DNA of 64,000 nt from contig CAVXKA010000003.1 of assembly GCA_963762255.1 (NCBI GenBank), positions 320,001-384,000 of the forward strand, given 5' to 3'. Source of the DNA: Candidatus Eiseniibacteriota bacterium (GTDB lineage: Bacteria > Eisenbacteria > RBG-16-71-46 > JABDJR01). The translations under genes were made by a program, and so were the position numbers. The notes under the pieces are model-generated. The model was not told the DNA's origin, did no database searches, and saw only the letters and a program-made list of their open reading frames with translations. Shown piece by piece: positions 37,010-63,428 of the stretch (positions are counted from its first letter, which is position 1; each line of letters starts with the position of its first letter).

Positions 37010-37067
37010 ACTTCGCTCCTTGACGGTGCCCGGCCGACGTTGACGGCGGCCGGAGCGGCAACTGACA

Positions 37068-39359: not shown

Positions 39360-39376
39360 CGAAATCCCCCCGCCGA

Positions 39377-42240: not shown

Positions 42241-42339
42241 GAATTTCCCCTGTCGTTTGAGTCCATTCGATCGAATCGGCCCGGCGAAGAGGCGGGGACC
42301 GGTGCCGCGCCACAGACCCGCGCGGGATGGGTAGTACCG

Positions 42340-46100: not shown

Positions 46101-46402
46101 GCGTGACCGAGGCGGTGCGGCTCCCGGGCTTCACCGTCTTCGGGCCGTCGCCGTCACCGTCGCCGGCGTCGTCGATCCTGAGCTTCCGGCTCGACGAGAC
46201 CGCGGACGTCCGCATCGCGGTCGCCGACGTCTCCGGACGCGTGGTCCTGGTGCAGGAGTTGGGGCGGCGCGAGCCGGGCGAGACCTCGGTGCGCCTCACC
46301 CCACGAGGCACCGACGGCCGCGAGCTGCCCGCCGGCATCTACTTCGTGCGTGTCGACGCGGGGATGCTCTCGGCCACGCGCAAGTGGGTGATCGTGCAGT
46401 AG
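43139..46402 (+). CDS. secreted GH57-like glycoside hydrolase with C-terminal FlgD-Ig/T9SS-like domain
   Basis: Signal peptide; HGNQ, HTPERV and FDDWE resemble GH57 conserved regions; C-terminal DVSGRVV...GRELPAGIYFVRV...TRKWVIVQ. Confidence 0.65.
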   Translation: MLANGLASSASIPSRVWILGALIGALAAAAVPAESAITVGPGPALGTDRAGVTWYQDFQDWTHSDLRALDDAGLGDAVYAFSDGYDDSRDMIAFYYRAEGDYLYFRADLYDLVLGAEQSNLNLYVAIDWRTGGQAWLPDFLDVQTDTPWEACLAIYQSGTTLGSSYNLWDENFNVLSGGYTGAYFNSQIDAVEFGLQRAKLTALGWDGVSVLRFQVFTTKDNTETSCSGGGRSSDITDSIVDDDRGCSDGVLNGSISSTDVAGLVTYASIAHGNQSVNRAGDIGAHIYDPQSSTGISGGTGFLRTLDTHEIFKVPLNIHPSGTLTIACNWATRPTGPADPQDGPAFLARIREFVDNDQSQSPGSLLGGVLAEHILPYFEGEVNAASIAVTDSLNRAVYGRTAAEVQVMHTPERVIRSQSTGYSPLDGHTFEDIVASPYVATYLDEITHLHGWFYPGESCQPDQGYRHKLHKINGVYCFMINDREDQGKFGNHDGGMVMDTRYSLLQKSLYGNSSEIVVVFDDWEALAGKSFDPNAGTPIPNNNPNQYHNTIRWAANHPWIRISNLKDILATALASPSAFVIDHGFRYDLGIQTYEWLKHASENSYNYWYYNQNAGFTGNEQDFYNLVPVITGPQGDYHSRGATPANDGPPLPGGMKHGDLNSPGTLMYEAWHAVDDAPAGRLRDLGVWSYLAMIYETAWHEEDQVDYSDTDCYGNWIHPDNSWDGVNTWALRLQNHVRGAGFYSAAAQWAEDAKNGLVGPATGATTADLDFDGENEYVIRNSRVWLAFEKYGARCVLAAAYDPVTHDAQVLVGAPLTNPSAPGEEEYVGTAAFRCSAFKEMNGGSYADAVYSATTVAGGWRFTSPDGAVVKTITVPDGGYDVIAAYAETVSGSLYVRLGLNPNPGDLFLNGDAHLTGIYDGTYNTYTLANSAGGAVHLRLGAASFNASPADAGANRRNLALTEQVEVYGDGAFTLIMTLIPGRTETTGVTEAVRLPGFTVFGPSPSPSPASSILSFRLDETADVRIAVADVSGRVVLVQELGRREPGETSVRLTPRGTDGRELPAGIYFVRVDAGMLSATRKWVIVQ

Positions 46403-48918: not shown

Positions 48919-49075
48919 CTGGGATGCTCCCGCTCGGCGCTCCGCGCCTCGCAGGAGATCCCGCAACCGCAATGCAAGACCTTGGCGGAGGGACTGGGAT
49001 GCTCCCGCTCGGCGCTCCGCGCCTCGCAGGAGATCCCGCAACCGCAATGCAAGAACTTGGCGGAGGGACTGGGAT
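48919..49075 (-). repeat. 75-bp tandem repeat of tRNA-Ser(TGA) 3' end plus GNA-capped hairpin
   Basis: CTGGGAT at 48919, 48994 and 49069 (period 75); two near-identical units; distal unit truncated after ATCCCAG. Confidence 0.92.
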
Positions 49076-49145
49076 TCGAACCCAGGGAGCCTTTCGGCTC
49101 ATCGGTTTTCAAGACCGACGCCTTCGACCGCTCGGCCATCCCTCC
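49058..49145 (-). tRNA. tRNA-Ser(TGA)
   Basis: TCGGT CT TGA AA ACCGA anticodon arm, long variable arm, ends GCCA. Confidence 0.95.
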
Positions 49146-49342: not shown

Positions 49343-50089
49343 ATGAGCCCGCTGTATGACTGGGATGAGGGCGAGTTTCTCTCGCCCGAGGAGGAGAGGA
49401 TGATCGACGAACTCGAGGCCATGCTGCGCCCGCCCGTACTTCCGATGGCGCCCTACCCCGCCAAAGCCATCACGCTGGCCAGCGGCGAGATCATGGTCGT
49501 GCGCCAGGCTTCGGTGGACGAGGTCGACGCCATGCTGAGGTACATTCAGCCGCTTTCGTGGCTGAAACGTGACTTCTACGACATCGTGTCGGCAAGGCTC
49601 TTCGCAGAACTGCTCGGCTGGAAGACCTATCGTGTCCGCAACGAATACTGCCTGGTCGGCGTCATCGACGGCGTCTTGGCCGGCATCGTCAACGGCCGCA
49701 TGTTCGACGAACAGCACGGCATCAGCTACCACACGCTCGCGCTCAAGCGCGGGCTGCGCGTGGGCGCGCATCTCTTTGCGGCGAAGATGGAGCACCACAT
49801 CGAGTACCTCGGCCAGGATGAGGTGTGGATCGTCGCCGAGAGCCCGATCGGCCACCGGCGCTGGATGATCGAGTACCCGCTCGACACCAAGTTCGAGATC
49901 CAGCACGAGCTGGGCGGCGCACCGTCCTGGATGCTCTCCCGCGAGACCTACTTCAAGGCCAAGTCGCGATTGGTGAGCGGCACTCGCCCGGTGTCCGACG
50001 AACTCCTCGCCAAGTCCTATCCGCTCAAGGAGCCCGACCTGCGCACGATGCTCGTGCAGATCGACGACACGCTGGAGGCGCGGCTATGA
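49343..50089 (+). CDS. GNAT-fold N-acyltransferase-like protein
   Basis: Pattern VVRQAS...CLVGVIDGVLAGIV...LKRGLRVGAHL resembles GNAT motif A; ATGA overlap with the thiolase; start uncertain. Confidence 0.55.
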   Translation: MSPLYDWDEGEFLSPEEERMIDELEAMLRPPVLPMAPYPAKAITLASGEIMVVRQASVDEVDAMLRYIQPLSWLKRDFYDIVSARLFAELLGWKTYRVRNEYCLVGVIDGVLAGIVNGRMFDEQHGISYHTLALKRGLRVGAHLFAAKMEHHIEYLGQDEVWIVAESPIGHRRWMIEYPLDTKFEIQHELGGAPSWMLSRETYFKAKSRLVSGTRPVSDELLAKSYPLKEPDLRTMLVQIDDTLEARL

Positions 50090-51270
50090 GAGACGTCGCC
50101 ATCGTCGGAGTCGGATCGACGCAGTTCGGGCGGGCGCAGTGGAGCCTGCTCAAGATGATGGCCGAGGCGTCGAACGACGCGGTCAAGGACGCCGGCCTAG
50201 GCAAGAAGAAGATCGACGCGGTCTATGTGGCCAACATGGGCTCGGCGCGGAACAACCGGCAGGCCGGTCTCGCCAGCGCGCTGGTGGACCGCCTGAACCT
50301 CTACCCCGCCGCCGCCGACACCGTCGAGAACGGTCCGGCCTCCGGGGCATCTGCGGTCAAGAACGGGTTCTACGCGATCGCCTCCGGCATGTGCGATCTG
50401 GTGTTGGTCTGCGGCGGCGAGCGCATGCGCGAGGTGAACAATTTCGAGGCGACCGAGTTCGTCTCGTTCCTGTCCCACCGCTACGCCGAGTACGTCTACG
50501 GCATCACGCTGCCGTCGCTGGCCGGCATGTTCGCGCGGCTCTACATGCATCGTTACGGGGTCACCGCGGAGCATCTCGCGATGGTGGCGATCAAGAACCA
50601 CGCGAACGGGGTCCTCAACCCCAAGGCGCACCTGCGCGCCCCGATCACCATGGAGGGGATCCTCACCGGCCCCGACGCCATGATGAACAACCCGTGGGTG
50701 GCGGATCCGCTTCGCTTCTACGACTGCTGCCCGGTGAGCGACGGAGCCTCGGCGCTGTTGCTCGCACCTGCCGCGATGGCCAAGGAATTCGGCAAAGCCC
50801 CGGTCAAGATCGCCGGCATGGGCCAGGCCACCGACACCCAGACCGTCCACGAGCGGCCCGATCCGACCGAACTCACCGCGGTGCGGCTCGCCGCGGAGAA
50901 GGCGTTCAAGATGGCGGGGCTCGCGCCCAAGGACATCGGCGTGGCCGAGCTGCACGACGCCTTCACGATCCTCGAGATCGCGGAGAGCGAAGAGGCCGGA
51001 TTCTTCAAGAAGGGCCAGGGCCACAAGGCGCTGGAGCGCGGCGAGACCAAGATCGGCGGGAAGCTGCCGATCAACCCGTCCGGCGGGCTCAAGGCGCGTG
51101 GACATCCCGTCGGCAACACCGGCGTGTCGCAGATCGTGGAGCTGGTGCTGCAACTGCGCGGCGAGGCCGGCGACTATCAGGTTCCGAACAAGCCGAAGAA
51201 CGGTTTCGCGGTCAACTTCGGCGGGTTCGGCAATAACGTGCTCGCCACCGTGCTGCAAGGGGGGATGTGA
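50086..51270 (+). CDS. SCP2/archaeal-type thiolase-family protein lacking catalytic cysteines
   Basis: MRDVAIVGVG, KNHANGVLNP, CCPVSDGA, ELHDAF, INPSGGLKARGHPVG; nucleophile site reads VENGPASG. Confidence 0.88.
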   Translation: MRDVAIVGVGSTQFGRAQWSLLKMMAEASNDAVKDAGLGKKKIDAVYVANMGSARNNRQAGLASALVDRLNLYPAAADTVENGPASGASAVKNGFYAIASGMCDLVLVCGGERMREVNNFEATEFVSFLSHRYAEYVYGITLPSLAGMFARLYMHRYGVTAEHLAMVAIKNHANGVLNPKAHLRAPITMEGILTGPDAMMNNPWVADPLRFYDCCPVSDGASALLLAPAAMAKEFGKAPVKIAGMGQATDTQTVHERPDPTELTAVRLAAEKAFKMAGLAPKDIGVAELHDAFTILEIAESEEAGFFKKGQGHKALERGETKIGGKLPINPSGGLKARGHPVGNTGVSQIVELVLQLRGEAGDYQVPNKPKNGFAVNFGGFGNNVLATVLQGGM

Positions 51271-51271
51271 G

Positions 51272-51610
51272 ATGGCCCGCACCGTGGATGCCGCCAAGTG
51301 CAAGGGTTGCGGCAAGGTCTCCTATCCGATGCACTTCTACTGCCCCGCCTGCGGGGCCACGAAGTTCGAGCCGGTACCGGTGGAGGGAGAGGGGAAGCTC
51401 CTGACCTGGACGCGGGTGTATACCCTGCCCCTCGACTACTCCGATCTCTACATCACGCTCGGGATCGTGGAGCTGGACATGGGCGTGCGCGCCACCGGCC
51501 GCCTGGATATCGCCGAGCCCGAGATCGGTGCGCGGGTACGCGCGCGGGTCGGCAAGGTGCGCGAGATCAACGGCAACGATGTGACGGGTCTGATCTTCAG
51601 CACGGTGTGA
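51272..51610 (+). CDS. DUF35/ChsH2-like Zn-ribbon OB-fold thiolase partner
   Basis: KCKGCG...YCPACG, GEGKLLTWT, GIVELDMG; directly after the thiolase. Confidence 0.88.
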   Translation: MARTVDAAKCKGCGKVSYPMHFYCPACGATKFEPVPVEGEGKLLTWTRVYTLPLDYSDLYITLGIVELDMGVRATGRLDIAEPEIGARVRARVGKVREINGNDVTGLIFSTV

Positions 51611-51638
51611 CCGTCGGGCGCCGCGCGGGAGGGATACG

Positions 51639-52496
51639 ATGAGCAGCTTCCGCTATGAGCGGCCCGGGAGTGTCGCGCAAGCCACGGCGCTTCTGGCCGA
51701 AGCGCCCGGTCGGGCGCGCGTGCTGGCCGGGGGGACCGATCTCATGGTCGCCCTTCGCTCCGGCGCCGCGCGTCCCGAGCTGGTGGTGGACGTGAAGCGG
51801 ATCCCCGAGCTCTCGGAGATCCGCTGGACTCCTGAAGGCGCGCTTGTCTTGGGCGCGTGCGTGCTGGTGCAGGACGTCGCCATGGATCCGCGGATCCGTG
51901 AGACGTTTCCCGCGCTCTCCGAAGGCGCGCTCGCCATCGGATCGCTCCAGATCCGCTCGCGAGCGACGATCGGCGGCAATCTGGCCAATGCGTCGCCGTG
52001 CATGGACACCGCTCCCCCGCTGCTCATCCTGAACGCGCGGATCCGCGCGGCGGGCCCGCAGGGCGAACGCGAGATCCCGCTCGCCGAGTTCTTCCGCGGC
52101 GTGAAGCAGACGGCGCTCGCCGCCGACGAGATGCTCACGGCGGTGCTGGTGCCCAAGCCGCCTGCCGGGTTCCGCGCGGCATTCGACAAGATCAAGCGCG
52201 TCTACGGCCACGACCTGGCGCTGGTGAACGCGGCGGCGGGCTTCGACCCGGGCGCGGGCACGTTGCGCGCCGCCATCGGAAGCTGCGGCATCACCCCCGT
52301 GCTCACTCCCCTCCTCACCGGCATCGACCCGGCCGGCGACGCCCGGGAGGCAGGAACGCGCCTGGGGGCGCTGGCGCTCGAACACATCTGCCCCATCGAC
52401 GACGTGCGCTCCTCCGCCGAGTACCGGCGCGACATGACCGTCGCCCTCTGCCGGCGGATGGTGGCGCGGCTCCTCGGCGGGTCGAGGAAACGATGA
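51639..52496 (+). CDS. xanthine dehydrogenase family FAD-binding subunit (CoxM-like)
   Basis: LAGGTDL, QIRSRATIGGNLANASP, PIDDVRSSAEYR. Confidence 0.92.
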   Translation: MSSFRYERPGSVAQATALLAEAPGRARVLAGGTDLMVALRSGAARPELVVDVKRIPELSEIRWTPEGALVLGACVLVQDVAMDPRIRETFPALSEGALAIGSLQIRSRATIGGNLANASPCMDTAPPLLILNARIRAAGPQGEREIPLAEFFRGVKQTALAADEMLTAVLVPKPPAGFRAAFDKIKRVYGHDLALVNAAAGFDPGAGTLRAAIGSCGITPVLTPLLTGIDPAGDAREAGTRLGALALEHICPIDDVRSSAEYRRDMTVALCRRMVARLLGGSRKR

Positions 52497-55369
52497 TGAA
52501 GACCCACGCAATCACGCTCACCGTCAACGGTGCGACGTCCACGCTGGAAGTGCCGGCGGAGCGAACGCTGCTCGAGCTGCTCAAGGGCGGCTTCCACCTG
52601 CAAAGCGTCAAGGGGGGCTGCGGCATCGGCGAGTGCGGCGTATGCACCGTCGTCATGAACGGCCGCCCGGTGAACGCGTGCCTCGTGCTCGCGGTGGAGG
52701 CGGACGGCGCGGTCATCGAGACCGCGGAAGGCATGACCGAGGACCTCGGCGTGCTCTCCGACCTCCAGCAGGCCTTCATCGACTTCGGCGCCGTTCAATG
52801 CGGCTTCTGCACGCCGGGGATGCTCAACTCCGCGCGCGCGCTGCTCGCGGCAAACCCGCATCCGTCGCGTGAGGAGATCGTCGAGGCGCTCTCCGGCAAC
52901 CTGTGTCGATGCACCGGCTACGAGCCGATCATCCAGGCGGTGGAGGCTGTGGCGTCGGGAACGTACCGCGCCGCCGAGCCGCTGTCGGGCCCGTTCGTCG
53001 GCGGCGGGGCCCCGCGCTTGGACGCGGCGGCCAAGGTCACCGGCTCCGCGGTTTTCGTGCACGACATGACGCTTTCGGGGATGCTTCACGCACGCATTCT
53101 CACCTCTCCGCATCCCGCCGCGCGCATCAAGCGCATCGACACCTCCAAGGCCCGCGCGATGCCGGGGGTCCGCGCCGTGCTGACCGGCGCCGATCTCCCT
53201 TACAAGCTCGGCCTCTACATGGAGGACAAGGACATCCTCGCCCGCGGGGTGGTGCGCCATCAGGGCGAAGCGGTGGCCGCGGTCGCCGCCGAGACGGTCG
53301 CGCAGGCGCGCGCCGCGTGTCGCGCGATCGAGGTGGAGTACGAGCCGATCGAAGCGGTGCTCGACGTCGAGGAAGCGCTCCGCGAAGACGCGCCGCAGGT
53401 GCACCCCGATCTCGCGAACTACTCCTGGATGAAGGGGGTCTTCTTCCCGCAACCCGGCAAGAACATCGCCCACCAGCAGAAGATTCGCAAAGGGGACATC
53501 GCGAAGGGCTTCGCCGAGGCTGACCGCGTGTTCGAGTTCAGCTTCCGCAACCCGCCGGTGCAGCACGTGCCGCTCGAGACGCATACCGCTATCGCCACAG
53601 CGCGCGCGGACGGCGAGGTCGAGATCATCACCTCGGCGCAGTCCCCCTTCACCGTGCGGCACCTCTTCTGCCACACCTTCGCCATGCCGCTCCAGAAGGT
53701 GCGGGTGAAGGTGCCCTATGTCGGTGGCGGCTTCGGCGGCAAGGCCGGCATCCATCTGGAGCCGTTGGTGTACTGCTTGTCCAAGGCCGCGGGCGGCCGA
53801 CCGGTGAAGATCACGGCCACGCGCGAGGAGGAGTTCAACACGCTTCCCTCGCGGCAGGGGCTGCGCAGCCGCATCAAGACCGGGGTGAGCAAGGACGGAC
53901 GCATCGTCGCGCTCGAGATCGCGTATCACTGGGACGCCGGCGCCTATGCGGACTACGGCGTGAATATCGGGCGCGCTGCCGCCTACTCGGGCGCGGGGCC
54001 GTACGTGGTGCCCAACTGCAAGCTCGATTCGTACGTGGTCTATACGAACAAGATTCATGGCACGGCCTACCGAGGCTTCGGCCATCTCGAAGTGCTCTGG
54101 GGCATCGAGCGCAACATGGACCTCGTGGCGCGGGCGCTGGGGATGGACTCCTTCGAGTTCCGCATGAAGAACCTGCTCCGTCCCGGCGAGACCACCATCA
54201 CCGGCGAACTCGTGACCGAGAGCCACGGCAGGCCAGATGAGTGCCTGCGTCTGGTGGCCGAGGCAATCGGCTGGGATCCCAAGGCCCGCGCCTCCGCGCC
54301 GGTTGCGCCGGGTTCGGGCGTGGTGCGCGCGAAGGGGCTGGCCATGGTCCACAAGGCGCCGGCCATGCCTACTTTCACCTCGTGCTCGGCCACCATCCTC
54401 ATGAACGGCGACGGCTCGGCCAACGTGCTGGTGAGCGGCGTGGATTACGGTCAGGGCACCTATACCACGCTGGCGCAGATCGCCGCTGACGAGCTCAAGT
54501 TGCCGCTCAACAAGATCCGGGTCCCGTGGGACAGCGACACCGATTTCACACCCTACGATTGGCAGACCGTGGCGAGCCGCTTCGCGGTGATGGGCGGAAA
54601 CGCGGTCATCGAAGCCGCGCGCGACTGCCTGCGCCAGATCAAGGAGGTCGCCGCGCAGGCGCTCCAGGCACCGGTCGATCAGATCGAATGCGGGGACGGC
54701 AAGGTCTGGACGCGGGGAGCGCCTGATCACGCCCTCGACTACAGCAAGATCGTACTCGGTTACACCTATCCGAACGGCAACAGCATCGGCGGGCCGGTGA
54801 TCGGACGCGGGCGCTACATCGCGACCGGGCTCACCAACCTGGACCCGGAGACCGGGCAGGGGCTCCCCGCTCTCAACTGGACCTACGGCGCGCATGCGGT
54901 GGATCTCGAGGTGGACACCGATACCGGACACGTCCGCGTGCACACCTTCGCTTCCGCGTTCGACGTCGGGAAGGTGCTCAACCTCCAGCAGTGCAAGACG
55001 CAGGTCATCGGGGGTGTGATTCAGGGGCTGGGATCGGCGGTCATCGAGAAGTTCGTGTTCGACAAGGGGCGGCTCGTCAACAACTCCTTCGTGGACTACA
55101 AGATTCCCACCGCGAAGGACATCCCGACGGAGATGAAGCAGTTCTTCGTGGAGACGCCGCATCCGCAGGGGCCGTACGGGGCGCGCGGCGTCGCCGAGCA
55201 CCCGATGATCTCGGTGCCGAGCGCGGTCGGCAACGCGGTCGCCAACGCCACCGGGGTCGAGTTCTTCGAGCTGCCGTTGGATCCGGAGCGGATCTACCTG
55301 ACGCTCAAACGCGCCACGGAGGGGAAGCCGCAGCCTGCGACGGACGCGGCCCGGGTGGCCAGGAAGTAG
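52493..55369 (+). CDS. molybdenum hydroxylase, fused 2x[2Fe-2S] and molybdopterin subunits
   Basis: GCGIGECGVC, QCGFCTPG, NLCRCTGY, GGGFGGK, AYRGFG, YGQG, TVASR, GVAEHP. Confidence 0.92.
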   Translation: MMKTHAITLTVNGATSTLEVPAERTLLELLKGGFHLQSVKGGCGIGECGVCTVVMNGRPVNACLVLAVEADGAVIETAEGMTEDLGVLSDLQQAFIDFGAVQCGFCTPGMLNSARALLAANPHPSREEIVEALSGNLCRCTGYEPIIQAVEAVASGTYRAAEPLSGPFVGGGAPRLDAAAKVTGSAVFVHDMTLSGMLHARILTSPHPAARIKRIDTSKARAMPGVRAVLTGADLPYKLGLYMEDKDILARGVVRHQGEAVAAVAAETVAQARAACRAIEVEYEPIEAVLDVEEALREDAPQVHPDLANYSWMKGVFFPQPGKNIAHQQKIRKGDIAKGFAEADRVFEFSFRNPPVQHVPLETHTAIATARADGEVEIITSAQSPFTVRHLFCHTFAMPLQKVRVKVPYVGGGFGGKAGIHLEPLVYCLSKAAGGRPVKITATREEEFNTLPSRQGLRSRIKTGVSKDGRIVALEIAYHWDAGAYADYGVNIGRAAAYSGAGPYVVPNCKLDSYVVYTNKIHGTAYRGFGHLEVLWGIERNMDLVARALGMDSFEFRMKNLLRPGETTITGELVTESHGRPDECLRLVAEAIGWDPKARASAPVAPGSGVVRAKGLAMVHKAPAMPTFTSCSATILMNGDGSANVLVSGVDYGQGTYTTLAQIAADELKLPLNKIRVPWDSDTDFTPYDWQTVASRFAVMGGNAVIEAARDCLRQIKEVAAQALQAPVDQIECGDGKVWTRGAPDHALDYSKIVLGYTYPNGNSIGGPVIGRGRYIATGLTNLDPETGQGLPALNWTYGAHAVDLEVDTDTGHVRVHTFASAFDVGKVLNLQQCKTQVIGGVIQGLGSAVIEKFVFDKGRLVNNSFVDYKIPTAKDIPTEMKQFFVETPHPQGPYGARGVAEHPMISVPSAVGNAVANATGVEFFELPLDPERIYLTLKRATEGKPQPATDAARVARK

Positions 55370-55378
55370 GAGGCGCGC

Positions 55379-56957
55379 GTGTCCGGCTTCGTGCTGGTTC
55401 GCAAGGATTCGTACCACGACTCGGTGCTCCTCATGCGCCTCTCCCAGGCGCTGAAGGGCTTGGCCGGCGTCGAGGACGCGACGGTCGCGATGGGCACCCC
55501 GCAGAACCGCGCGCTCCTCGAAGCGCAGGGGTACGGCGGGGACGCGCTCGCCGCGGCCGGTCCCAACGATCTCGTGATCGCGGTGACGGGGAGGCGCGGA
55601 CACCCCGCGCGCGGTGGAGGAAGAGTTCGAGAAGCTCCTCCACGCGGAGCGACCGGCAGGCGTGGAGGACGTTCGCCCCACGTCGCTCGCCGCGGCGGTG
55701 AAGGCGCATCCCGAGTCCAACCTCGTTCTCATCTCGGTGCCCGGTGAGCACGCCGCGCGGGAAGCGCGCCGAGCGCTCCATCTGGGCCGGCACGTCATGC
55801 TCTTTTCCGACAACGTCACCGTGGCGGACGAAGTCGCGCTGAAGAAGGAAGCGGTCGAGCGCGGGCTCCTCATGATGGGGCCCGACTGCGGCACGGCGAT
55901 CGTCAACGGCCTGCCGCTCGGCTTCGCCAACGCGGTGCGCCGCGGCGCGATCGGCATCGTGGGCGCGGCCGGCACCGGCATCCAGGAAGTGTCGTGCTGC
56001 ATCCATCGCATGGGTGGAGGCGTCTCGCAGGCCATCGGTACCGGCGGGCGCGATCTCTCCGAAGCGGTGGACGGCGCGATGATGCGTCTCGGCATCGAGG
56101 CGCTCGCCGCCGATCCCGCCACGCGCGTGATCGTGGTCGTCTCGAAACCCCCGGCGGCGTCGGTCGCGAATTCCGTCATCGCCGCGCTCGCGGCCACGGC
56201 GAAACCCTGTGTGGCGCACTTCATCGGCGACGAGCCGCGTGTCGACGACACGGCTCACGGCGTCTTCTTCGCCGAATCGCTCTCCGGCGCCGCCGAGAGC
56301 GCGTGCCGCCTGGCCGGGCTGGACATCGCCACGACGACCTCCGCGCCAGACGCGGCACAGGTCGCCGCGCTTGCCGCGCGCCTCTCACCGGGCGCCGCCT
56401 TGCGCGCACTCTTCTGCGGCGGCACCACCGGCCAGGAGGCGCTCGTGCTGCTCTCACGGGCGGGCATGGAGGTGCGCTCGAATCTTCACAAGCACGGCGC
56501 GCTGCGCGTCGACGGCACCGAATCCGTGCGCGGGCATGTACTGCTCGACCTGGGCGACGACGTGTTCACGCGAGGCCGGCCGCATCCCATGATCGAGCCC
56601 GAGCTACGAAACGAGCGCCTCGCGGTGGAGATGGGCGACCCCGACGTAGGCCTCCTTCTCTTCGACTGCGTGTTGGGCTACGGCGCGCATCCCGATCCCG
56701 CCGGGGTCCTTGCCGAGGGCGTGAACCGCGCCCGCGATACAGCGCGCACCCGCGGGCGCGATCTCGTTGCGGTGGCCTCAGTGACGGGGACGCCGGACGA
56801 TCCGCAGGATTCCCGCGCGCAGACGCTCGCGCTGGAGGCGGCGGGCATCGTGGTCGCGGCCGACAACCGCGCGGCCGCGGCGCTGGTCGCCGCAGCGCTC
56901 ACCGCGGCGTCCACAGCACCGGGCTCCACAAAGGCGACCCCGAAAGGGCGGGCGTGA
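55379..56957 (+). CDS. fdrA: FdrA/AllF-like acyl-CoA synthetase-family protein, +1 frameshift at 55588-55591
   Basis: YHDSVLLM, MGTPQN, ISVPG, LFSDNV, MGPDCGT, GTGGRDL, DLGDDVFTRGRPHPMI; span 1579 nt = 3n+1. Confidence 0.85.
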
Positions 56958-58399
56958 TGGATACGCGCAAGCTCGAGTCGCTCTTCGGTGAAGAACTCAA
57001 CGTCATCAACGTCGGGCTCCCCTCCTTCGCGGCCGAGCTGCGGCGCGCCGGCGGGAACGCGGTGGACGTCGACTGGCGCCCGTCCGCGGGAGGCGATCCG
57101 CGGGTGCAGGACGCGCTCGACGTTTGTCTCACCCCCGACGGGGCCGTGCGCGACGACATCGCGGTGGCCACGCGGCGTTCCGTAGATCGCCTCCTCGAAG
57201 CGAAGCCCACGATCACCGGCATCGGGCGCGCGCTCGACGTGATCCCCGGCATGCGCAAGGAGTTGATCCTGCACGCCGGACCTCCGGTGACATGGGATCG
57301 CATGAGTGGGCCCACCCGAGGCGCGGTCATGGGAGGGCTCGTCTACGAGGGCCTGGCCAAGACCCCTGAAGAGGCGGAGCGACTCGCCGCGTCCGGCGCG
57401 GTGACCTTCGAGCCATGCCACCACCATGCAACGGTGGGACCGATGGCGGGGATCGTCACCGCATCGATGCCGGTGTGGATTCTCGAGAACACCGCGTTCG
57501 GCAACTGCTCCTACGCGACACTGAACGAAGGTCTCGGCAAGGTGCTCCGCTACGGCGCCTACAGCGACGAAGTGATCGACCGCCTGCGCTGGATGGAGCG
57601 CGTGCTGGCCCCGGCGCTCGCGGAGACACTCGCGAGTCACGGGCCGCTCGACCTGCGCAGCCTCATCGCCCAGGCCTTGCAGATGGGCGACGAGGTACAC
57701 AACCGCAACCGTGCGGCAACATCCCTGCTCATCCGCGCGCTCGCGCCGCATCTGGTGCGCACGCGGTTCGCGGCCGACGACATCGCCCAGGTCCTGCGGT
57801 TCCTGGACGGCAACGACCACTTTTTCCTCAACCTCTCGATGGCGGCTGCCAAGTCCGCGTTGGACCCGGCGGCGGGGATCGCGGGCTCGAGCATGATCAC
57901 CGTCATGGCGCGCAACGGCACCGACTTCGGAATCCAGGTGTCCGCGCTTCCTGGACGCTGGTTCACCGCGCCGGCGCCGATGGTGGAGGGTCTCTATCTC
58001 CCCGGCTTCACCGCCGCCGACGCCGCACCCGACATCGGCGACTCCGTCATCACCGAGACCGCCGGCCTCGGTGGGATGGCCATGGCCGCCGCTCCCGCCA
58101 TCGTGCAGTTCGTGGGTGGAAGCGCCTCGCAGGCGCTCGCCTTCACCCGCCGCATGTACGGGATCACGCTCGCCGAGCACCCGACGTACAAGATCCCTGC
58201 GCTCGATTTTCGCGGCACCGCCACCGGCATCGATCTTCTCAAGGTGGTCGAGACCGGTGTGGTGCCGGTCGTGAACACCGGCATCGCTCACAAGCGGCCC
58301 GGCGTCGGCATGGTCGGCGCGGGCCTCGTCAAGCCGCCTTTCTCATGTTTCGCGCAGGCACTTCTCGCCTTCGCGGAATCGCTCGAGCCTTCCGCGTAG
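56957..58399 (+). CDS. YlbE/AllG-like DUF1116 protein
   Basis: LHAGPP, PCHHHATVGPMAG, NEGLGKVLRYGA, MGDEVHNRN, NDHFFLN, DIGDSVITET. Confidence 0.88.
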   Translation: MDTRKLESLFGEELNVINVGLPSFAAELRRAGGNAVDVDWRPSAGGDPRVQDALDVCLTPDGAVRDDIAVATRRSVDRLLEAKPTITGIGRALDVIPGMRKELILHAGPPVTWDRMSGPTRGAVMGGLVYEGLAKTPEEAERLAASGAVTFEPCHHHATVGPMAGIVTASMPVWILENTAFGNCSYATLNEGLGKVLRYGAYSDEVIDRLRWMERVLAPALAETLASHGPLDLRSLIAQALQMGDEVHNRNRAATSLLIRALAPHLVRTRFAADDIAQVLRFLDGNDHFFLNLSMAAAKSALDPAAGIAGSSMITVMARNGTDFGIQVSALPGRWFTAPAPMVEGLYLPGFTAADAAPDIGDSVITETAGLGGMAMAAAPAIVQFVGGSASQALAFTRRMYGITLAEHPTYKIPALDFRGTATGIDLLKVVETGVVPVVNTGIAHKRPGVGMVGAGLVKPPFSCFAQALLAFAESLEPSA

Positions 58400-58432
58400 A
58401 GACCTGCGCGGAAAAGGCACAACGGAGGACCC

Positions 58433-59425
58433 ATGAAGCTCATCGACCTGACCGTTCCCCTCGGCATCGGCACCCCCGCGTGGCCCACCTACGAACCGCT
58501 GCAGATGAAGTACTTCAAGCGGCTCGCACCCAACGGCGCCAACGGGCAGATCATCACCCACTCCAACCACGTGGGCACCCATCTCGACGGCGAGATCCAC
58601 TTCTACACACCCGGCAAGGACATCGCCGCCCTGAAGCTCGACTACCTCGTCGGCGAAGGCGTGGTCGTGGATCTCTCCGATTGCTGCGGCGATTACGACG
58701 TCTACACGTCAAAGATGGTGGAGGATCGCGCCGAGGTGCACGACGGCGACATCCTCATCGTTCACACCGGCTACCATCACTTCGGTTGGGACCAGCCCAC
58801 CGCGGACGAGATCAGTTACATGGTCAAGCACCCCGGCCCCGACCGCGAGTTCGCCGATTGGGCAAAGCGTCGCAAGATCCGCTGGATCGGCGTGGACTGC
58901 GGAAGCGCGGACCATCCGATGAACACGATCATCCGCGATTGGATGCCCCGCCAGGCGCGTCAGGCCGATGCCCACTTCCGCAAGAAGTACGGCAAGCCCT
59001 TGGCCGAGTACTACGACGACTCCAAGTACCAACTCATGCACCTCGAGATGTTCAACCACGGGATCATTCACGCCGAATGCCTGGGCGGAGACATCGACCT
59101 GCTACTGAACCAGCGGGCCACGATCGGCTGCTTCCCGTGGCGGTTGGTGGACGGCGAGTCGTGCATCTCTCGGATCGTCGCGTTCGTCGACGACAAGCGC
59201 TACGACGAGCTGATGAAGGTGAAGGCGCAGTACACGCTCACCAAGTGGGGCGACATCGCGGGATCGCTGGCGCCGCAGCTCCACGGCAAGAAGCGCCCGG
59301 GACCGGCGGCGGCGAAGAAGGCCGCACCCAAGCGCATCATTGCCTCCAAGAGCAGTGCCGCCCCCAAGGCCAAGGCCGTCCCCAGGCGCGAGGCCGCGCC
59401 CAAGGCCAAGAAGTCCGGACGCTGA
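58433..59425 (+). CDS. cyclase-family metal hydrolase (kynurenine formamidase/isatin hydrolase-like) with Lys/Ala-rich tail
   Basis: IDLTVP, HVGTHLDG (HxGTHxD), GVDCGSAD, HAECLGG; GGAGG RBS. Confidence 0.85.
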   Translation: MKLIDLTVPLGIGTPAWPTYEPLQMKYFKRLAPNGANGQIITHSNHVGTHLDGEIHFYTPGKDIAALKLDYLVGEGVVVDLSDCCGDYDVYTSKMVEDRAEVHDGDILIVHTGYHHFGWDQPTADEISYMVKHPGPDREFADWAKRRKIRWIGVDCGSADHPMNTIIRDWMPRQARQADAHFRKKYGKPLAEYYDDSKYQLMHLEMFNHGIIHAECLGGDIDLLLNQRATIGCFPWRLVDGESCISRIVAFVDDKRYDELMKVKAQYTLTKWGDIAGSLAPQLHGKKRPGPAAAKKAAPKRIIASKSSAAPKAKAVPRREAAPKAKKSGR

Positions 59426-59433
59426 GACACGCG

Positions 59434-60228
59434 GTGCGCGTCGGCCCGCTCGCGGCCGGCGCGCTCACCCTCGGCGCGCGGGGACGCGTGGTGTCCGTGC
59501 ACCGGCAGGCCGTGAACCTCCGCCTTGAGGACGGGCCGCTGGTAGCCCTCCTCCCCGAGGGGACGGCGCTTCACCCCTGGGCGCTCGCCGCTCCGCTCGA
59601 CTGTTCGCGCCTCGCACCGGGCGATCCGTTCGATGTCTCGAACGACGCTCTCGAAGTCGGTTCGCTTCGCGTCACGCTGGAAGGAGCGGAGACCGTAGAG
59701 CTTCGACTTCGCGCGCGGCCGATGGTCTGGCCCGCGGGCGCGATGATGACGATCACCGCGTTGCTCGTGCGGCGCCCGCACGACAGCCCCTTCGATGCGG
59801 TGCTCTCCGAGACACTGGCTCGTTTCAGCGCCGGTGGCGATACGCGCGATCTCCTCGATCTCGTCGGCCTCGGCGAGGGCCTCACCCCATCCGGAGACGA
59901 CATCTTGGTGGGAGTCCTGGCCGGACTGGACGCGCTCGCGGAGATTCCCGGCGGCGCGAGCGTGGAACGCAGCGCGCTCTGCGCCACGCTCACGCCCGAA
60001 CACCTCGCACGCACGAACGCGCTCTCCGCGCAGATGCTCGCGGCGGCCTCGGCGGGCCTCTACGCGGAACCTGTCCTTTGGATGGCCCAAGCACTCTCAG
60101 CGGAGCCAGGGGCGATCGATCAAGCGGCGAAGGCGCTCCTCGCCGTGGGCCACCGCTCCGGCGAAGATACGCTGCGCGGCATGGCCATGGCGCTCGGAAG
60201 GGCGCGAAGCCGCGCCGCCTACCTATAG
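59434..60228 (+). CDS. YlbF/AllH-like DUF2877 protein
   Basis: LVGLGEGLTPSGDDILVG, RTNALS, VGHRSGEDTLRG; start approximate. Confidence 0.85.
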   Translation: MRVGPLAAGALTLGARGRVVSVHRQAVNLRLEDGPLVALLPEGTALHPWALAAPLDCSRLAPGDPFDVSNDALEVGSLRVTLEGAETVELRLRARPMVWPAGAMMTITALLVRRPHDSPFDAVLSETLARFSAGGDTRDLLDLVGLGEGLTPSGDDILVGVLAGLDALAEIPGGASVERSALCATLTPEHLARTNALSAQMLAAASAGLYAEPVLWMAQALSAEPGAIDQAAKALLAVGHRSGEDTLRGMAMALGRARSRAAYL

Positions 60229-60235: not shown

Positions 60236-60787
60236 TCAGCCACGGCCACCGTTGCTCTTCGGGAGCTTAGCGGTGCCCTCGGACGCTACGCGGCTCGCCC
60301 CGGCGAGCGCCTCGGCGCCCTCCTGCGATTCATCCGCGCGCGCCACCTTCTTCTGGGCCGCGCCGAGGAGCTGCGCCACTCCGTGGAGGATAGCCTCGGG
60401 GCGGGCCGGACAACCCGGGATGTACATGTCCACCGGGATGACCTTGTCCACGCCGCCGACCACGTTGTAGGTATCGAACCACGGTCCGCCCCCCACCGCG
60501 CACGCACCGATGGCGATCACGATCTTGGGATCGGGGACGGCAGCGTAGAGCCGCTTCAAGGGCTCGCGCATCGGCCGGGTCACAGGCCCGCACACGAGAA
60601 GGACGTCGGCATGTCGAGGCGATCCGACCAACCGCATGCCCAGACGCTCCACGTCGAAGTACGGGGTGAGCGCGTCGAGCACTTCGATGTCGCAGCCGTT
60701 ACACCCACCGACGTTCGTGTGAAACACCCAGAGCGATCCGGTGAATGCCTTCGGGAAGGCACGTTGCAGAAGTCCGTCCATCGGCAT
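60236..60787 (-). CDS. group 4 hydrogenase/Ehr small subunit (NuoB/HyfI-like)
   Basis: GGCNGCDIE, SPRHAD, GACAVGGG, PGCP; AGGAGG RBS. Confidence 0.88.
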   Translation of the reverse strand: MPMDGLLQRAFPKAFTGSLWVFHTNVGGCNGCDIEVLDALTPYFDVERLGMRLVGSPRHADVLLVCGPVTRPMREPLKRLYAAVPDPKIVIAIGACAVGGGPWFDTYNVVGGVDKVIPVDMYIPGCPARPEAILHGVAQLLGAAQKKVARADESQEGAEALAGASRVASEGTAKLPKSNGGRG

Positions 60788-60807
60788 TCAGTTCGCCTCC
60801 TTCCCCG

Positions 60808-62286
60808 TCACATCCGCGCCACGAGATCGAGCAGCGGGTCCAGGATCTGCGGGCGCAGGCCCAGCGCCAGGATCGCGGCGACCAGCATCGCCATCGCCCA
60901 CCGCATCGACGCCGGCACCTCGTGGATCTCCTCCAGCACCAGCTCGGAGGAATGCGGCCGCCCGCGGAACACCCGCTGCACCATCGCGGTCATATACGCC
61001 ATGGTGAGGAGCCCCACCGCGGTCGCGATCCCCATCGCCCACCAAGAGCGCGCGTCGGCGGCGGCAAGAACGACATGCGTCTTGGCCATGAACCCGCTGA
61101 ACGGCGGCATCCCGGCCAGCGACAGAGCGCCCACCAGCGCGCACGCCGCGGTCACCGGCATCCGCCGCTGCAAGCCGCCGAGAGCGGTGAGGCTGCGGAT
61201 TCCGTGCGCCGCGTAGATCACCGCCCCGGTGGATAGGAAGAGCAACCCCTTGGTCAGCGCATGGCTCACCAAGAAGAACACTGCGGCGTAGTAGCCGAGC
61301 GGCGGACCGACGCCGAGCGCCACCGCGATGTAGCCCACCTGCGACACGCTCGAGTACGCGTGCAGGCGCTTCAGGTCGTCCTGCACGATGGCCAGCGCAC
61401 CGCCCACCACCATCGTGAACACACCCAACCAGAGCAGCGTCTCGTTGAGAGCCGGGTACTTCGATCCGTAGACGCTCCACACCCGCAGGATCCCCACGAA
61501 GGGCACCTTGATGATGACGCTGGAGAGAAACGCGCTCATCACCGCGGGGGCCTCGGCGTGCGCATCCGCCACCCAGGGGTGGAACGGGGCAAGACCCGCC
61601 TTCGTGCCGAAGCCGATCAGGAGCAGAACCGTGGCGATGAGCACGATGTGCGACGGGATCTGGTCGGAGACACGCTGGAGGTTGCTGATGAGGAGCGCGG
61701 AATCGTTGCCCAGATGCGGCGCCGCCGCCGCGTAGAGCAGCACGCAGCCCAGGAACGCGGAGGTGATTCCCACCGTGAGCAGGAGCAGGTACTTGTAGCC
61801 CGCCTCCAGCGCGCGTTTGTCCCAATAGAAGGAGACGAGGAGCGCCGAAGCGACCGTGGTGGCCTCGAGCGCGACCCACAGGAGCACGATGTTGTTGGTC
61901 ATCACGACCCACAACAGCGTGAACTCGAGCACGAGGAAGAGCGCGGTGAACATGGGCAGGCGCCGTTCAAGGCGCATCCGGCGCTCGGCCTCCCGCAGGT
62001 GCACGCCGGGAAGATAGGCCAGCGAGTACACCGAGCACACCAAGGCGAGGAAGGTGATCAAGAGCGCCATGATCGCGGCCAGGCCGTCCACGAGGATCTC
62101 GCCGTGCAGTGCCTCGATGGGTCCCACCGAAGCCACCTGCCCCGCCTGGATCGCGGCCAGCCCCAGCGCCAGCGCGCTCGCCGCCACCCAGACCGGCTTG
62201 CGCGCGCGCCCCCTGCCTACGAACGCCAGGGCCGCCGCGGCCAGCGGAACCGCCAGGAGTGCGATCGGGATCCAGGCCGTCACCAT
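60808..62286 (-). CDS. antiporter-like proton-translocating subunit (HyfF/MrpD-like)
   Basis: WVALEATT, ALEAGYKY, GFGTKAGLAPFHPW, KRLHAYSSVSQ, HALTKGLLF, PPFSGF. Confidence 0.88.
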   Translation of the reverse strand: MVTAWIPIALLAVPLAAAALAFVGRGRARKPVWVAASALALGLAAIQAGQVASVGPIEALHGEILVDGLAAIMALLITFLALVCSVYSLAYLPGVHLREAERRMRLERRLPMFTALFLVLEFTLLWVVMTNNIVLLWVALEATTVASALLVSFYWDKRALEAGYKYLLLLTVGITSAFLGCVLLYAAAAPHLGNDSALLISNLQRVSDQIPSHIVLIATVLLLIGFGTKAGLAPFHPWVADAHAEAPAVMSAFLSSVIIKVPFVGILRVWSVYGSKYPALNETLLWLGVFTMVVGGALAIVQDDLKRLHAYSSVSQVGYIAVALGVGPPLGYYAAVFFLVSHALTKGLLFLSTGAVIYAAHGIRSLTALGGLQRRMPVTAACALVGALSLAGMPPFSGFMAKTHVVLAAADARSWWAMGIATAVGLLTMAYMTAMVQRVFRGRPHSSELVLEEIHEVPASMRWAMAMLVAAILALGLRPQILDPLLDLVARM

Positions 62287-62936
62287 TTCAGAGCCCTCAG
62301 GCGTGCGGTATCGCGCGTGCCCAACTGCGTCTGTATTCCGTCGATCAGGTGCAGGAGCAGGTACACAGCCACCACCACGTCGGTGATCACCCCGATCAGA
62401 ACCGTCTCGCGCATCGCGGTGGCCAGCGACACGAGCGAAAGATGCGCGCCGTTCTCCATCAGGCAAACGCCGATCACGACCTTGATCGCATCGCGTCGGG
62501 TGAGCACGGCGTAGAGACCCATGAAGAGGAGCGTGAGCGCGACCGCCACGTTGGTGCGGTAAGGCTCCTGCTCCGCAAGCGGCGTCGGTGCCAGGAACGA
62601 GACGTGATGATGGATGAGCTGATAGCTGACCAGCGCCAGCGTTGCGATGATCAGCGCCGACGGGATCATGCCGACGAAGGGGTCTACCTCGCGATCGCTC
62701 CCCTTCTGAATTGCCCGCCGGAGCATCCACGAGATGAGCCCCAACTTGGTGACGGCCGCGGTGGCTGCCCAGACCCAGAGGCCGGGATGTACGACGGCGA
62801 AGCAGGCGATGATCGCCACCATGAGGCCCGCCTGCCCCATGTAGGCAAGCTGCGCCCGCCGCAGGCTTCTCGACTCGATGGCCAGGAACGAGGTAATGAT
62901 GAGGGCCAGCGAGAGCGTGCGAATGAGATCGACCAT
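62280..62936 (-). CDS. HyfE-like membrane subunit
   Basis: Polytopic; C-terminal NuoK-like segment IGVCLMENG. Confidence 0.75.
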   Translation of the reverse strand: MVDLIRTLSLALIITSFLAIESRSLRRAQLAYMGQAGLMVAIIACFAVVHPGLWVWAATAAVTKLGLISWMLRRAIQKGSDREVDPFVGMIPSALIIATLALVSYQLIHHHVSFLAPTPLAEQEPYRTNVAVALTLLFMGLYAVLTRRDAIKVVIGVCLMENGAHLSLVSLATAMRETVLIGVITDVVVAVYLLLHLIDGIQTQLGTRDTARLRALKW

Positions 62937-63418
62937 CACCCCTCCCGCCCGGGGGCGCCGTTGCCGGGGGCCAGAAGCTCCGGTTCGTCGACGCGCGGCC
63001 CCACGCAACTCAAGTGATCCAGGGGATGCGCGGGGACGTAGCACCTCCCGCACCGGTCGCAGACCGCCATGAACAGCCGTTGCTCGATGAAGAGATCGCG
63101 CCGGTCGGACGTGCCCAGCTCCCAGTCCGCAACAAGTCGCACCGCGCCGTACGCGCAGGCGTCTTCGCAGCGGCCGCAGTGCAGACAACGGTCGAGGTAG
63201 CGGCGGATCACCCGGGTGACGGCGTCGATGTCGGTGATCCGGATGCAGCGCGAGGCGCAGACATCGGCGCAGCCGCCGCACCCGACGCACTTCTCGGTGT
63301 CGACCGTCACACGCCCGCGAAACTCCGGCGCAGGCGCGAGCGGGGCCAGGGGATAGCCCACCGTCGCCCGCGGGTTGCGCAGGCCGAAGGCCAGTTGCTT
63401 GAGCTTCGATCCGATCAC
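62936..63418 (-). CDS. NuoI/HycF-like 2[4Fe-4S] ferredoxin subunit
   Basis: TVGYP, FRGR, CVGCGGCADVC, CLHCGRCEDAC, extra CDRC; GGGAGG RBS and GTG start. Confidence 0.85.
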   Translation of the reverse strand: MIGSKLKQLAFGLRNPRATVGYPLAPLAPAPEFRGRVTVDTEKCVGCGGCADVCASRCIRITDIDAVTRVIRRYLDRCLHCGRCEDACAYGAVRLVADWELGTSDRRDLFIEQRLFMAVCDRCGRCYVPAHPLDHLSCVGPRVDEPELLAPGNGAPGREG

Positions 63419-63428
63419 GACCGCCTCC

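Follow-up and report, generated by a model that had tools for sequence, protein, structure and literature searches.

A conserved gene set in Candidatus Eiseniibacteriota and other phyla places FdrA/AllG/AllH homologues beside a molybdenum hydroxylase, a cyclase-family hydrolase and GNAT-fold, thiolase-fold and DUF35 proteins

In Escherichia coli, AllFGH acts as an oxalurate/oxamate transcarbamylase that converts the N-acylurea oxalurate and phosphate into carbamoyl phosphate and oxamate, and the accessible part of its description reports no role for CoA (PMC11326118). Homologues of all three subunits are encoded in a nine-gene cluster at positions 49343-60228 of the DNA analysed here, a stretch of 64,000 nt (the window) from the forward strand of contig CAVXKA010000003.1, 320,001 to 384,000, in assembly GCA_963762255.1 of a Candidatus Eiseniibacteriota bacterium (Eisenbacteria; RBG-16-71-46; JABDJR01). 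Two further known systems resemble this cluster in part, namely the oxidative pyrimidine pathway of aerobic actinomycetes, with its uracil/thymine dehydrogenase, barbiturase and ureidomalonase, and the archaeal complex of thiolase, HMG-CoA synthase and a DUF35 protein, which couples its reactions by channelling. The cluster represents a conserved catabolic gene set whose families are all known and whose combination is apparently undescribed. We infer that it joins ureide phosphorolysis of the AllFGH type to a molybdenum (Mo) hydroxylase, a hydrolase of the cyclase family and a new assembly of GNAT-fold, thiolase-like and DUF35 proteins. With moderate confidence, we propose that the operon is one variant of a widespread O2-independent, ureide-type pathway for N-heterocycles.

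An earlier reading of this DNA from its letters alone (the sequence-only reading) had placed nine co-oriented genes with overlapping or nearly adjacent ends in this interval and had named their products. The window is rich in GC (0.63-0.72 across 40-64 kb), so raw lists of open reading frames (ORFs) are crowded with shadow frames, and true genes were sorted from these by codon-position GC together with Pfam. By these measures, nine tightly packed plus-strand genes indeed occupy the interval, and Pfam agrees with the identities given for B to I. The distances between neighbouring genes run from a 13-nt overlap to 33 nt, as follows.

49343-50089, + strand: A, a GNAT-fold protein of 248 amino acids, assigned at the fold level, with no Pfam or NCBIfam model
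50086-51270, + strand: B, a thiolase-fold protein (archaeal/SCP2-type) without the nucleophilic Cys; 4-nt overlap with A
51272-51610, + strand: C, a DUF35 protein (ChsH2-like zinc ribbon plus OB fold); 1-nt gap after B
51639-52496, + strand: D, the FAD-binding subunit of a Mo hydroxylase of the xanthine dehydrogenase (XDH) family; 28-nt gap after C
52493-55369, + strand: E, a fused [2Fe-2S] and molybdopterin-binding subunit; 4-nt overlap with D
55379-56957, + strand: F, an FdrA/AllF homologue (succinyl-CoA-synthetase-alpha-like), frameshifted; 9-nt gap after E
56957-58399, + strand: G, an AllG (DUF1116) homologue; 1-nt overlap with F
58433-59425, + strand: H, a cyclase-family (PF04199) metal-dependent hydrolase; 33-nt gap after G
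about 59413-60228, + strand: I, an AllH (DUF2877) homologue; overlaps H

The recurrence of this set was followed with A as bait. In contigs from one genome per species, 109 relatives of A were confirmed; 80 loci were fetched, their ORFs called by simple scripts, and neighbours counted at a query coverage of at least 50%. These loci come from at least eight phyla, with Eisenbacteria the closest (83-86%), followed by Sumerlaeota, Bipolaricaulota, Thermotogota, Chloroflexota, Actinomycetota, Spirochaetota and Armatimonadota, plus an archaeon; Longilinea arvoryzae KOME-1 (Chloroflexota, L043) is a cultured carrier. B adjoins A in 79/80 loci and C in 77/80, and within the fetched flanks H is found in 47 loci, D or E in 47 and F or G in 37. 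The count for I (11/80) is a lower bound, since I is the most divergent gene. Among the 32 loci of at least 15 kb, the numbers are 27 for H, 26 for the Mo genes and 23 for F or G, and the gene orders are shuffled across Eisenbacteria, Sumerlaeota, Thermotogota, Chloroflexota, Actinomycetota, Spirochaetota and an archaeon; L022 and L038 alone among these are without H, Mo or F/G genes. Where A-B-C stand alone, four of five genomes have an H orthologue (65-85% identical) beside AllG elsewhere, and the search for an H orthologue in the fifth, a 2.0-Mb bin, gave no match. A chance arrangement of the nine genes is ruled out because the layout recurs in many genomes, which also removes the doubt, raised in the sequence-only reading, that the combination might not be conserved.

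The association is also visible at the level of whole genomes. Across 151 genomes of the window's phylum, A is present in 17 (10 of 72 genera) and AllG in 16; AllG is found in 16/17 genomes with A and in 0/134 without it, these genomes being related and not independent. Horizontal transfer is compatible with this patchy distribution and with the 58-88% identity of A across phyla. Base composition was tried as a mark of an acquired island and gave no signal, GC being 0.65-0.72 inside and outside the cluster alike. An EamA transporter gene lies upstream of A in six Eisenbacteria loci and is not found in the window. We found no description of the cluster in PubMed Central open-access papers or bioRxiv, with subscription journals outside the scope of this search, in line with the sequence-only reading, which knew of no pathway with this gene set. 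The reductive uric-acid pathway, as far as the available text of its description goes, has a different gene set (10.1101/2025.05.19.654654).

Sister clusters in Anaerolineae offer a further level of detail about which parts of the set belong together. In the class of Longilinea (151 genomes), A is present in 5 genomes, AllG in 51 and an H-type cyclase in 50, and all five A genomes have both. From genomes of this class without A, 12 regions were fetched, and in eight of them a CN-hydrolase gene (N) lies beside H or G. The arrangements are the following.

L095, L096 and L099: F-G-H-N
L101: F-G-H-N-permease-D-S-E-AllH
L098: E-S-D-N-H..G
L100: AllH-F-G-H-permease
L102-L106 (G209, G245, G202, G196, G259): a paralogous type with FdrA-AllG, a fused double cyclase of about 560 amino acids and a distant Mo enzyme

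In L101, N occupies the position that A-B-C hold in loci of the L052 type. FdrA-AllG-cyclase(-AllH)-Mo-hydroxylase is the core of these clusters, and A-B-C are one of at least two downstream modules. In a change to the sequence-only reading, the thiolase, DUF35 and GNAT genes form a separable module, and in Anaerolineae a CN-hydrolase often takes its place. The paralogous type of L102-L106 suggests a family of related ureide pathways that differ in their substrates. Its FAD, FeS and Mo subunits are only about 30% identical to those of the window; it often shares a genome with an H orthologue, and in three of the five regions a CN-hydrolase adjoins the H orthologue or AllG. Two sister clusters also carry a DAO-family FAD oxidoreductase between AllG and the cyclase (L098, 9885-11009; L101, 8712-9839).

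All three families of the AllFGH subunits are present in the window, in the order F-G-(H)-I. F matches Pfam CoA_binding and Ligase_CoA on 55614-56957, and the NCBIfam model FdrA matches both of its pieces; G matches Pfam AllG (3.7e-100, 334 bits) and I matches AllH (4.2e-22, 79 bits). Identities to the two E. coli sets are nearly equal, at 43% to AllF and 46% to YahF for F, 46% to AllG and 47% to YahG for G, and 31% to AllH and 30% to YahE for I. Neither allantoin genes nor an adjacent carbamate kinase, the context of AllFGH in E. coli, were found in the flanks of the window; the sequence-only reading had likewise seen no allantoinase or other purine gene, and the set is not the E. coli allantoin locus. 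As an aside on the gene boundary, residues 8-54 of G (window 56978-57118) match positions 505-551 of the 555-position model of E. coli-type FdrA. The boundary between the F and G polypeptides thus differs from that in E. coli, a hint that F and G act as one unit.

The fdrA gene of the window is interrupted, its N-terminal 70 residues and the remainder lying in different frames, with a one-base insertion or deletion at about 55585-55592. Nine relatives of fdrA read straight across the junction. Five contigs from four public runs (85-99% likeness; two from X1, one each from X2 and X3 and one from the RNA library X10) cover the site, and all five lack one base of the G-rich run at 55585-55592, which restores the frame. 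The best word share of any sequencing run with the sampled words was 0.38, none reaching half, so that no run is the source sample and habitat labels serve as leads only. From the aligned sequences, the extra base is either an assembly error or a private mutation. In X10, a bioreactor metatranscriptome library, a 7.2-kb contig that runs from the last part of the Mo subunit gene into the first part of fdrA covers 55000-55530 with 22 differences in 531 nt (90-95% likeness). This contig hints at expression in a relative, with carry-over of DNA as an alternative source.

For the Mo hydroxylase and the cyclase, comparison with characterised enzymes was made by NCBIfam equivalog scores. D matches Pfam FAD_binding_5 (3.7e-49) and CO_deh_flav_C, and E matches Fer2, Fer2_2, Ald_Xan_dh_C (the hammerhead domain), MoCoBD_1 and MoCoBD_2. 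This domain set, comprising FAD, two [2Fe-2S] and molybdenum cofactor (Moco) domains, lies above the Pfam cut-offs, Fer2_3 excepted. Both proteins stay under every equivalog cut-off, at 521 against 780 for XdhA, 491 against 916 for PRK09970, 425 against 784 for PucD and 157 against 310 for XdhB. The same holds for the equivalogs of 4-hydroxybenzoyl-CoA reductase (alpha, 488.5 against 994.6; beta, 141 against 405; gamma, 148 against 258), the alpha subunit of which is the best PDB match of the Mo part of E (1rm6_A, 5.6e-97). A Glu near the C-terminus of E (GVAEHP) aligns with the active-site Glu region, and we take it to have the role of the active-site Glu of XDH-family enzymes.

H matches Pfam Cyclase at 8.6e-32 (110.7 bits against 23.1). 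Its likeness to kynurenine formamidase is distant (8e-7), with an H-x-G-T-H-x-D...H stretch aligned; the segment HSNHVGTHLDGEIHF of H, whose His and Asp do not vary among 27 sequences, aligns with the metal motif of that enzyme. Over 27 orthologues, the mean column identity is 80%. On the NCBIfam arylformamidase (KynB) equivalog, H scores 49.2 bits, short of the required 223, and the structure model has a pLDDT of 69.5, with the region of the metal motif below 50. At its C-terminus (about 59300-59425), H carries a basic tail of about 40 residues whose coding sequence runs into the beginning of I; with its many Lys, Ala and Pro residues, the tail recalls histone H1. Such tails are confined to close Eisenbacteria relatives, being longest in L003, and none were seen in other phyla.

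Protein A is invisible to the family models, matching no Pfam family at E<=0.01 and no NCBIfam family at E<=0.001, and the Atlas clusters to which it belongs list their Pfam content as 'none common'. An AF2 model built from 31 homologues reached a pLDDT of 87.6 and a pTM of 0.84. Searched with this model against the PDB, Foldseek returned 252 matches at E<=0.001, and the top matches listed are all GNAT acyltransferases, with E from 8e-7; in VIA, residues 33-211 of the model align with 8gxk_B and 1yre_B at Z 13.1 and a root-mean-square deviation of 2.9 over 160-163 residues. A is, judging from this model, a GNAT at the fold level only, so that the label of the sequence-only reading holds for the fold and finds no backing in sequence models. 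Residues R136-G137-L138 and G141 are invariant and follow strand 4, a position that corresponds to that of the acyl-CoA motif in GNATs; we take Q/R-x-x-G-x-G/A to be the pyrophosphate-binding motif for acyl-CoA in GNATs. S128, H130 and T131, also invariant, lie on the strand that corresponds to the dyad strand of malonyl-CoA decarboxylase (MCD) and CurA. According to the accessible part of the source, MCD and CurA have GNAT folds and use a His-Ser/Thr dyad to decarboxylate malonyl-CoA (PMC3701320). Among the matches listed, the fold searches place A no nearer to MCD or CurA than to ordinary N-acetyltransferases, and a role of A as a decarboxylase of the malonyl-CoA type is unsupported by them.

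B belongs to the thiolases by Pfam (Thiolase_N 1.2e-30, Thiolase_C_1 4.9e-46) and by NCBIfam PRK06064, 'thiolase domain-containing protein' (426 against a cut-off of 420). Its nearest PDB chains are the archaeal thiolases 7yvy_A (5e-83) and 6esq_A (1e-74). The nucleophile motif of both, EAACASG, aligns with ENGPASG in B, placing a Pro where the Cys should be, so that the label 'Cys-less' of the sequence-only reading is right. NGPASG is present in B of 77/79 loci, the other two being frame-broken alignments. Likewise, HDCF of 6esq, whose Cys we take to be the second catalytic Cys of SCP2-type thiolases, aligns with HDAF, found in 78/79 loci. Thiolase chemistry is excluded for B by these two replacements, and the loss of Cys is, from the aligned sequences, ancestral. 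The His of GHPVG and the motif NFGGFG are retained across loci, and the mean identity is 70% across phyla; to judge by these motifs, B keeps the residues that would polarise a thioester but not the nucleophile. C matches Pfam OB_ChsH2_C (4.8e-9; 36.5 bits against 27.1) and falls just below the cut-off of zf-ChsH2 (1e-4; 22.4 bits against 23.2), with C10, C13, C24 and C27 invariant in 31 sequences. DUF35 proteins are the usual scaffold partner of such thiolases.

The three proteins are predicted to form a complex. In a three-chain prediction, A against B plus C gave an ipSAE of 0.79, the best control reaching 0.11; in the calibration of the tool, such a mark was reached by 58/80 solved complexes and 2/110 mismatched pairs, counts that are only rough because custom alignments were used. 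Prediction runs share at least 92% of contacts, with a partner pLDDT of at least 86. The predicted interface of B (residues 185-203) takes in a stretch of 7 residues inserted relative to the archaeal thiolases, and that of A includes the segment after strand 4, which we take to be the place where GNATs bind the CoA pyrophosphate. We know of no solved GNAT-thiolase complex, and memory is therefore an unlikely source of the score.

Hints at the substrate come from genes that recur around the cluster. An NCS2 permease follows C in 11/80 loci and is found in two of the 12 Anaerolineae regions without A (L100, L101). On the uracil permease model, three copies reach 214-236 bits, compared with 188-197 on RutG and 140-148 on the xanthine permease. 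Carboxyltransferases like mmdA are present in L045, L051, L095 and L096, the L045 copy scoring 733 bits on NCBIfam mmdA and the others being called by a Pfam carboxyltransferase domain or by clustering. Genes for methylmalonyl-CoA mutase and epimerase lie upstream of N-A-B-C in L040, and acetate kinase and ADP-forming acyl-CoA synthetase flank the Longilinea cluster (L043). A TRZ/ATZ-type aminohydrolase is nearby in three loci, and a BMP-type ABC transporter in L045. The sequence-only reading had suggested a non-purine N-heterocycle whose identity cannot be read from the sequence. The former is plausible; the latter goes too far, since the NCS2 permease and the (methyl)malonyl-CoA genes point to a pyrimidine-like compound, each clue being weak singly. 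A search of the host genome with PF09663 (AtzD/TrzD barbiturase) gave no match, and the same search was blank in all 14 control genomes, which leaves this negative unvalidated.

Carbamate kinase is encoded in 6/6 cluster-bearing genomes searched (that of the window and five others from five lineages), in five of them over the cut-off, compared with 2/14 controls. The sequence-only reading had noted its absence, which is correct within the window; the host genome has one on another contig, beside two OTCase-family genes. No urease alpha subunit was found in the host genome, which is 93.6% complete and in 3 contigs. These two clues, like those from the neighbouring genes, are each weak when taken singly.

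The gene identities, the loss of the catalytic Cys, the conservation with its co-occurrence and the predicted contact of A with B/C can be read from the data. From these observations, a scheme can be drawn for which we infer all substrates, the order of steps and the chemistry. D/E would add an oxo group beside a ring nitrogen using water, for instance turning uracil into barbiturate, and H would open the cyclic amide to an N-acylurea such as ureidomalonate. By analogy, the pairing of a Mo hydroxylase with a cyclic-amide hydrolase would offer a chemically direct route from a 2-oxo-pyrimidine to an N-acylurea. Ureidomalonate is the one-carbon-longer homologue of oxalurate. F/G/I would then phosphorolyse the N-acylurea to carbamoyl phosphate and a primary amide, such as malonamate, or methylmalonamate from thymine, and the carbamoyl phosphate would yield ATP through the carbamate kinase encoded elsewhere in the genome. 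The leftover acyl or amide unit might be processed with CoA by the A-B-C complex, for example from the amide to malonyl-CoA and on to acetyl-CoA and CO2; in related clusters, the CN-hydrolase amidase would hydrolyse the amide in place of A/B/C. Uracil or thymine, taken to include a close pyrimidine analogue, is our best single guess at the substrate, and a tentative one. We consider it rather unlikely that the scheme holds in its most specific form, as an energy-conserving, O2-independent oxidative pyrimidine pathway that ends in a novel type of enzyme complex. There, the GNAT-fold enzyme A, docked on the Cys-less thiolase-fold protein B with DUF35 as scaffold, would swap the amide for a CoA thioester, an uphill step pulled by decarboxylation to acetyl-CoA (or propionyl-CoA), and the coupling would follow the channelling logic of the archaeal thiolase/HMG-CoA synthase/DUF35 complex.

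Several points weigh against this scheme. No sequence in the cluster names a substrate; the NCS2 scores lie under the NCBIfam cut-offs (236 against 477), and a PF00860 permease was not found in the window's own genome. The (methyl)malonyl-CoA and acetate genes, seen in one to four loci each, could be chance neighbours, and carbamate kinase may serve arginine or agmatine breakdown alone. The likeness of F/G/I to AllFGH reaches only 31-47% identity and is equalled by that to YahEFG, an uncharacterised set, and the fdrA of this window is frameshifted. D/E may reduce or act on a thioester, because their best solved match works reductively on a CoA thioester. N and A-B-C are not strict alternatives, because five A-seeded loci hold both. 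As for the predicted complex, its score is a model confidence obtained with custom alignments.

The scheme of the sequence-only reading differs from ours in its chemistry, with a non-ureide N-heterocycle (indole/isatin, nicotinate or quinoline) as substrate, the FdrA trio as an acyl-CoA synthetase and A-B-C in C-C cleavage or acyl transfer. F does have the domains of the succinyl-CoA synthetase alpha subunit and bears the NCBIfam name 'acyl-CoA synthetase FdrA'; the best solved Mo match (1rm6_A) acts on a CoA thioester, A and B have CoA-binding folds, and the cyclase family includes aryl-amide hydrolases, kynurenine formamidase being the nearest solved relative of H. Activation by CoA is nevertheless the weakest part of that scheme, given that the sole tested FdrA/YlbE/YlbF set is a carbamoyltransferase in the accessible part of its description (PMC11326118) and that all six carrier genomes encode carbamate kinase. 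For these two reasons, phosphorolytic decarbamoylation by F/G/I is the better reading. The recurrent permease of the nucleobase (NCS2) type, the lack in B of the Cys required for thiolytic C-C cleavage and the weak match of H to arylformamidase (49 bits against 223) also speak against the acyl-CoA synthetase scheme, which we regard as unlikely. A purine or allantoin route would make the Mo enzyme of xanthine/urate type and F/G/I true oxalurate transcarbamylases, acting on oxalurate or a close analogue from purine breakdown. The best NCBIfam names of D and E are XdhB and XdhA, the Pfam families of AllG and AllH are defined on oxamate carbamoyltransferase, and L100 has an Ldh_2-family dehydrogenase, presumably of the family of the ureidoglycolate dehydrogenase AllD, directly before I-F-G-H-permease. 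Against this route, the XdhA score (521) is far under 780, genes for allantoinase, allantoate amidohydrolase and ureidoglycine were not found in the window flanks or the scanned loci, and the permease fits the uracil and RutG models better than that of xanthine permease. The Mo subunit lies under all equivalog cut-offs, and G is no closer to AllG (46%) than to YahG (47%). E. coli excretes oxamate, and a purine route would hence leave A-B-C or the amidase without a role; we judge it quite improbable.

Two other explanations concern parts of the locus. A-B-C may not be catabolic at all, A being an acetyltransferase whose task is to modify an amine product, to detoxify it or to regulate the enzymes, and B a catalytically dead scaffold. 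This would agree with the top structural matches of A, all N-acyltransferases, with the loss of both catalytic Cys in B, and with the F-G-H-Mo clusters that work without A-B-C in most Anaerolineae. The conservation of B (70% mean identity, with HDAF, GHPVG and NFGGFG invariant across phyla) would however be unusual for a mere scaffold, A-B-C sit at the amidase position of the sister clusters, and AllG accompanies A in 5/5 genomes of the Longilinea class and in 16/17 of the window's phylum. We think a non-catabolic A-B-C improbable, if a little less so than the purine route. Decay of the locus in this organism, with fdrA as a pseudogene, would account for the one-base frame change that this gene needs. 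All other genes are intact, and none of the five contigs from the four runs (85-99% likeness) has the extra base in the G-rich run; with the genome in 3 contigs, an assembly error is at least as likely as a real frameshift. A decaying, non-functional locus is very improbable in our view.

The surroundings of the operon hold a number of other features. Upstream lie two tRNA-Ser genes on the opposite strand, and a 75-nt tandem duplication (copies 48919-48993 and 48994-49068, 99% identical) precedes the operon. The second copy overlaps the 3' end of tRNA-Ser(tga) (49058-49145, - strand), and the first repeats the last 11 nt of this tRNA; together, duplication and tRNA are the sole DNA between the operon and the next upstream gene. 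The duplication may be a remnant of integration or slippage. Seven nt past the last stop codon of the operon begins a convergent set on the - strand (60236-63999) of NuoB-like, NuoL/M-like, 2x4Fe-4S and NuoH-like genes, resembling a group-4 hydrogenase or complex I module. Farther upstream, 43130-46402 (+ strand) encodes a 1090-residue protein with a C-terminal sorting domain of the FlgD-Ig/T9SS type and no other Pfam match, and 32000-42339 (- strand) encodes a fused pyruvate/2-oxoacid:ferredoxin oxidoreductase (OFOR)-like protein of 1699 residues with extra ferredoxin domains, as well as a separate two-gene OFOR. A cbb3 oxidase is encoded elsewhere in the genome, so that the host is probably not a strict anaerobe.

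If the ureide proposal is correct, it would provide a pathway context for several orphan families, namely the FdrA/AllG/AllH clade outside enterobacteria, the conserved cyclase, the unmodelled GNAT and the Cys-less thiolase-fold protein. It would also explain how anaerobes and microaerophiles that are uncultured and live in soil, sediment, groundwater and bioreactors, including members of the Eisenbacteria, Anaerolineae, Sumerlaeota, Thermotogota and Bipolaricaulota, draw ATP and carbon from compounds resembling nucleobases with no need of oxygenases. In that case, an 'N-acylurea phosphorylase' of the AllFGH type would be of general use and not a curiosity of E. coli. With one carrier in culture (Longilinea arvoryzae KOME-1), the proposal is directly testable.

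Of the systems named at the outset, E. coli AllFGH (FdrA/YlbE/YlbF) and its paralogues YahFGE share with the cluster the same three families in a row. AllFGH carriers are urease-negative and have carbamate kinase, according to the accessible part of the source (PMC11326118), and the host genome is likewise. In contrast to the E. coli locus, allantoin genes and an adjacent carbamate kinase are missing here, G and I are separated by a cyclase-family hydrolase, and the set is coupled to a Mo hydroxylase and to A-B-C; moreover, the N-terminus of G holds what the E. coli FdrA model has as its last 50 residues. Presumably, the N-acylurea that serves as substrate is longer than oxalurate. With the oxidative pyrimidine pathway, the cluster would share the intermediates barbiturate and ureidomalonate and a hydroxylating dehydrogenase as the first step. 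Here, however, ring opening would fall to a cyclase-family enzyme, decarbamoylation would be phosphorolytic, giving carbamoyl phosphate, where the known pathway hydrolyses to urea, and the C3 unit would be processed in the form of an amide or CoA ester.

The single enzymes show similar mixtures of shared and distinct traits. D/E have the full domain set of the XDH family (FAD, two [2Fe-2S], hammerhead and two Moco domains), as found in xanthine dehydrogenase, quinoline 2-oxidoreductase, nicotinate dehydrogenase, 4-hydroxybenzoyl-CoA reductase and the aldehyde oxidoreductase of D. gigas, yet differ from these members in lying below all equivalog cut-offs. E shares the FeS/Mo fusion of the D. 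gigas enzyme, the separate FAD subunit D being the difference. H shares its Pfam domain and a metal motif rich in His and Asp with the PF04199 members kynurenine formamidase and isatin hydrolase, but is about 80 residues longer, distant from them, strongly conserved in itself and always beside AllG. Finally, B resembles the thiolase of the archaeal acetoacetyl-CoA thiolase/HMG-CoA synthase/DUF35 complex (6esq, 1e-74), with a DUF35 gene next to it and a third enzyme predicted to be bound, and the other thiolase-DUF35 pairs BbsAB (7pxp), Ltp2-ChsH2 (6ok1) and PhlABC (5m3k) can be likened to it as well. The third partner here has a GNAT fold and is neither HMG-CoA synthase nor KAS-III-like. With Pro for the nucleophilic Cys and HDAF for HDCF, B is in this respect more like the Cys-less aldolase Ltp2 than a thiolase.

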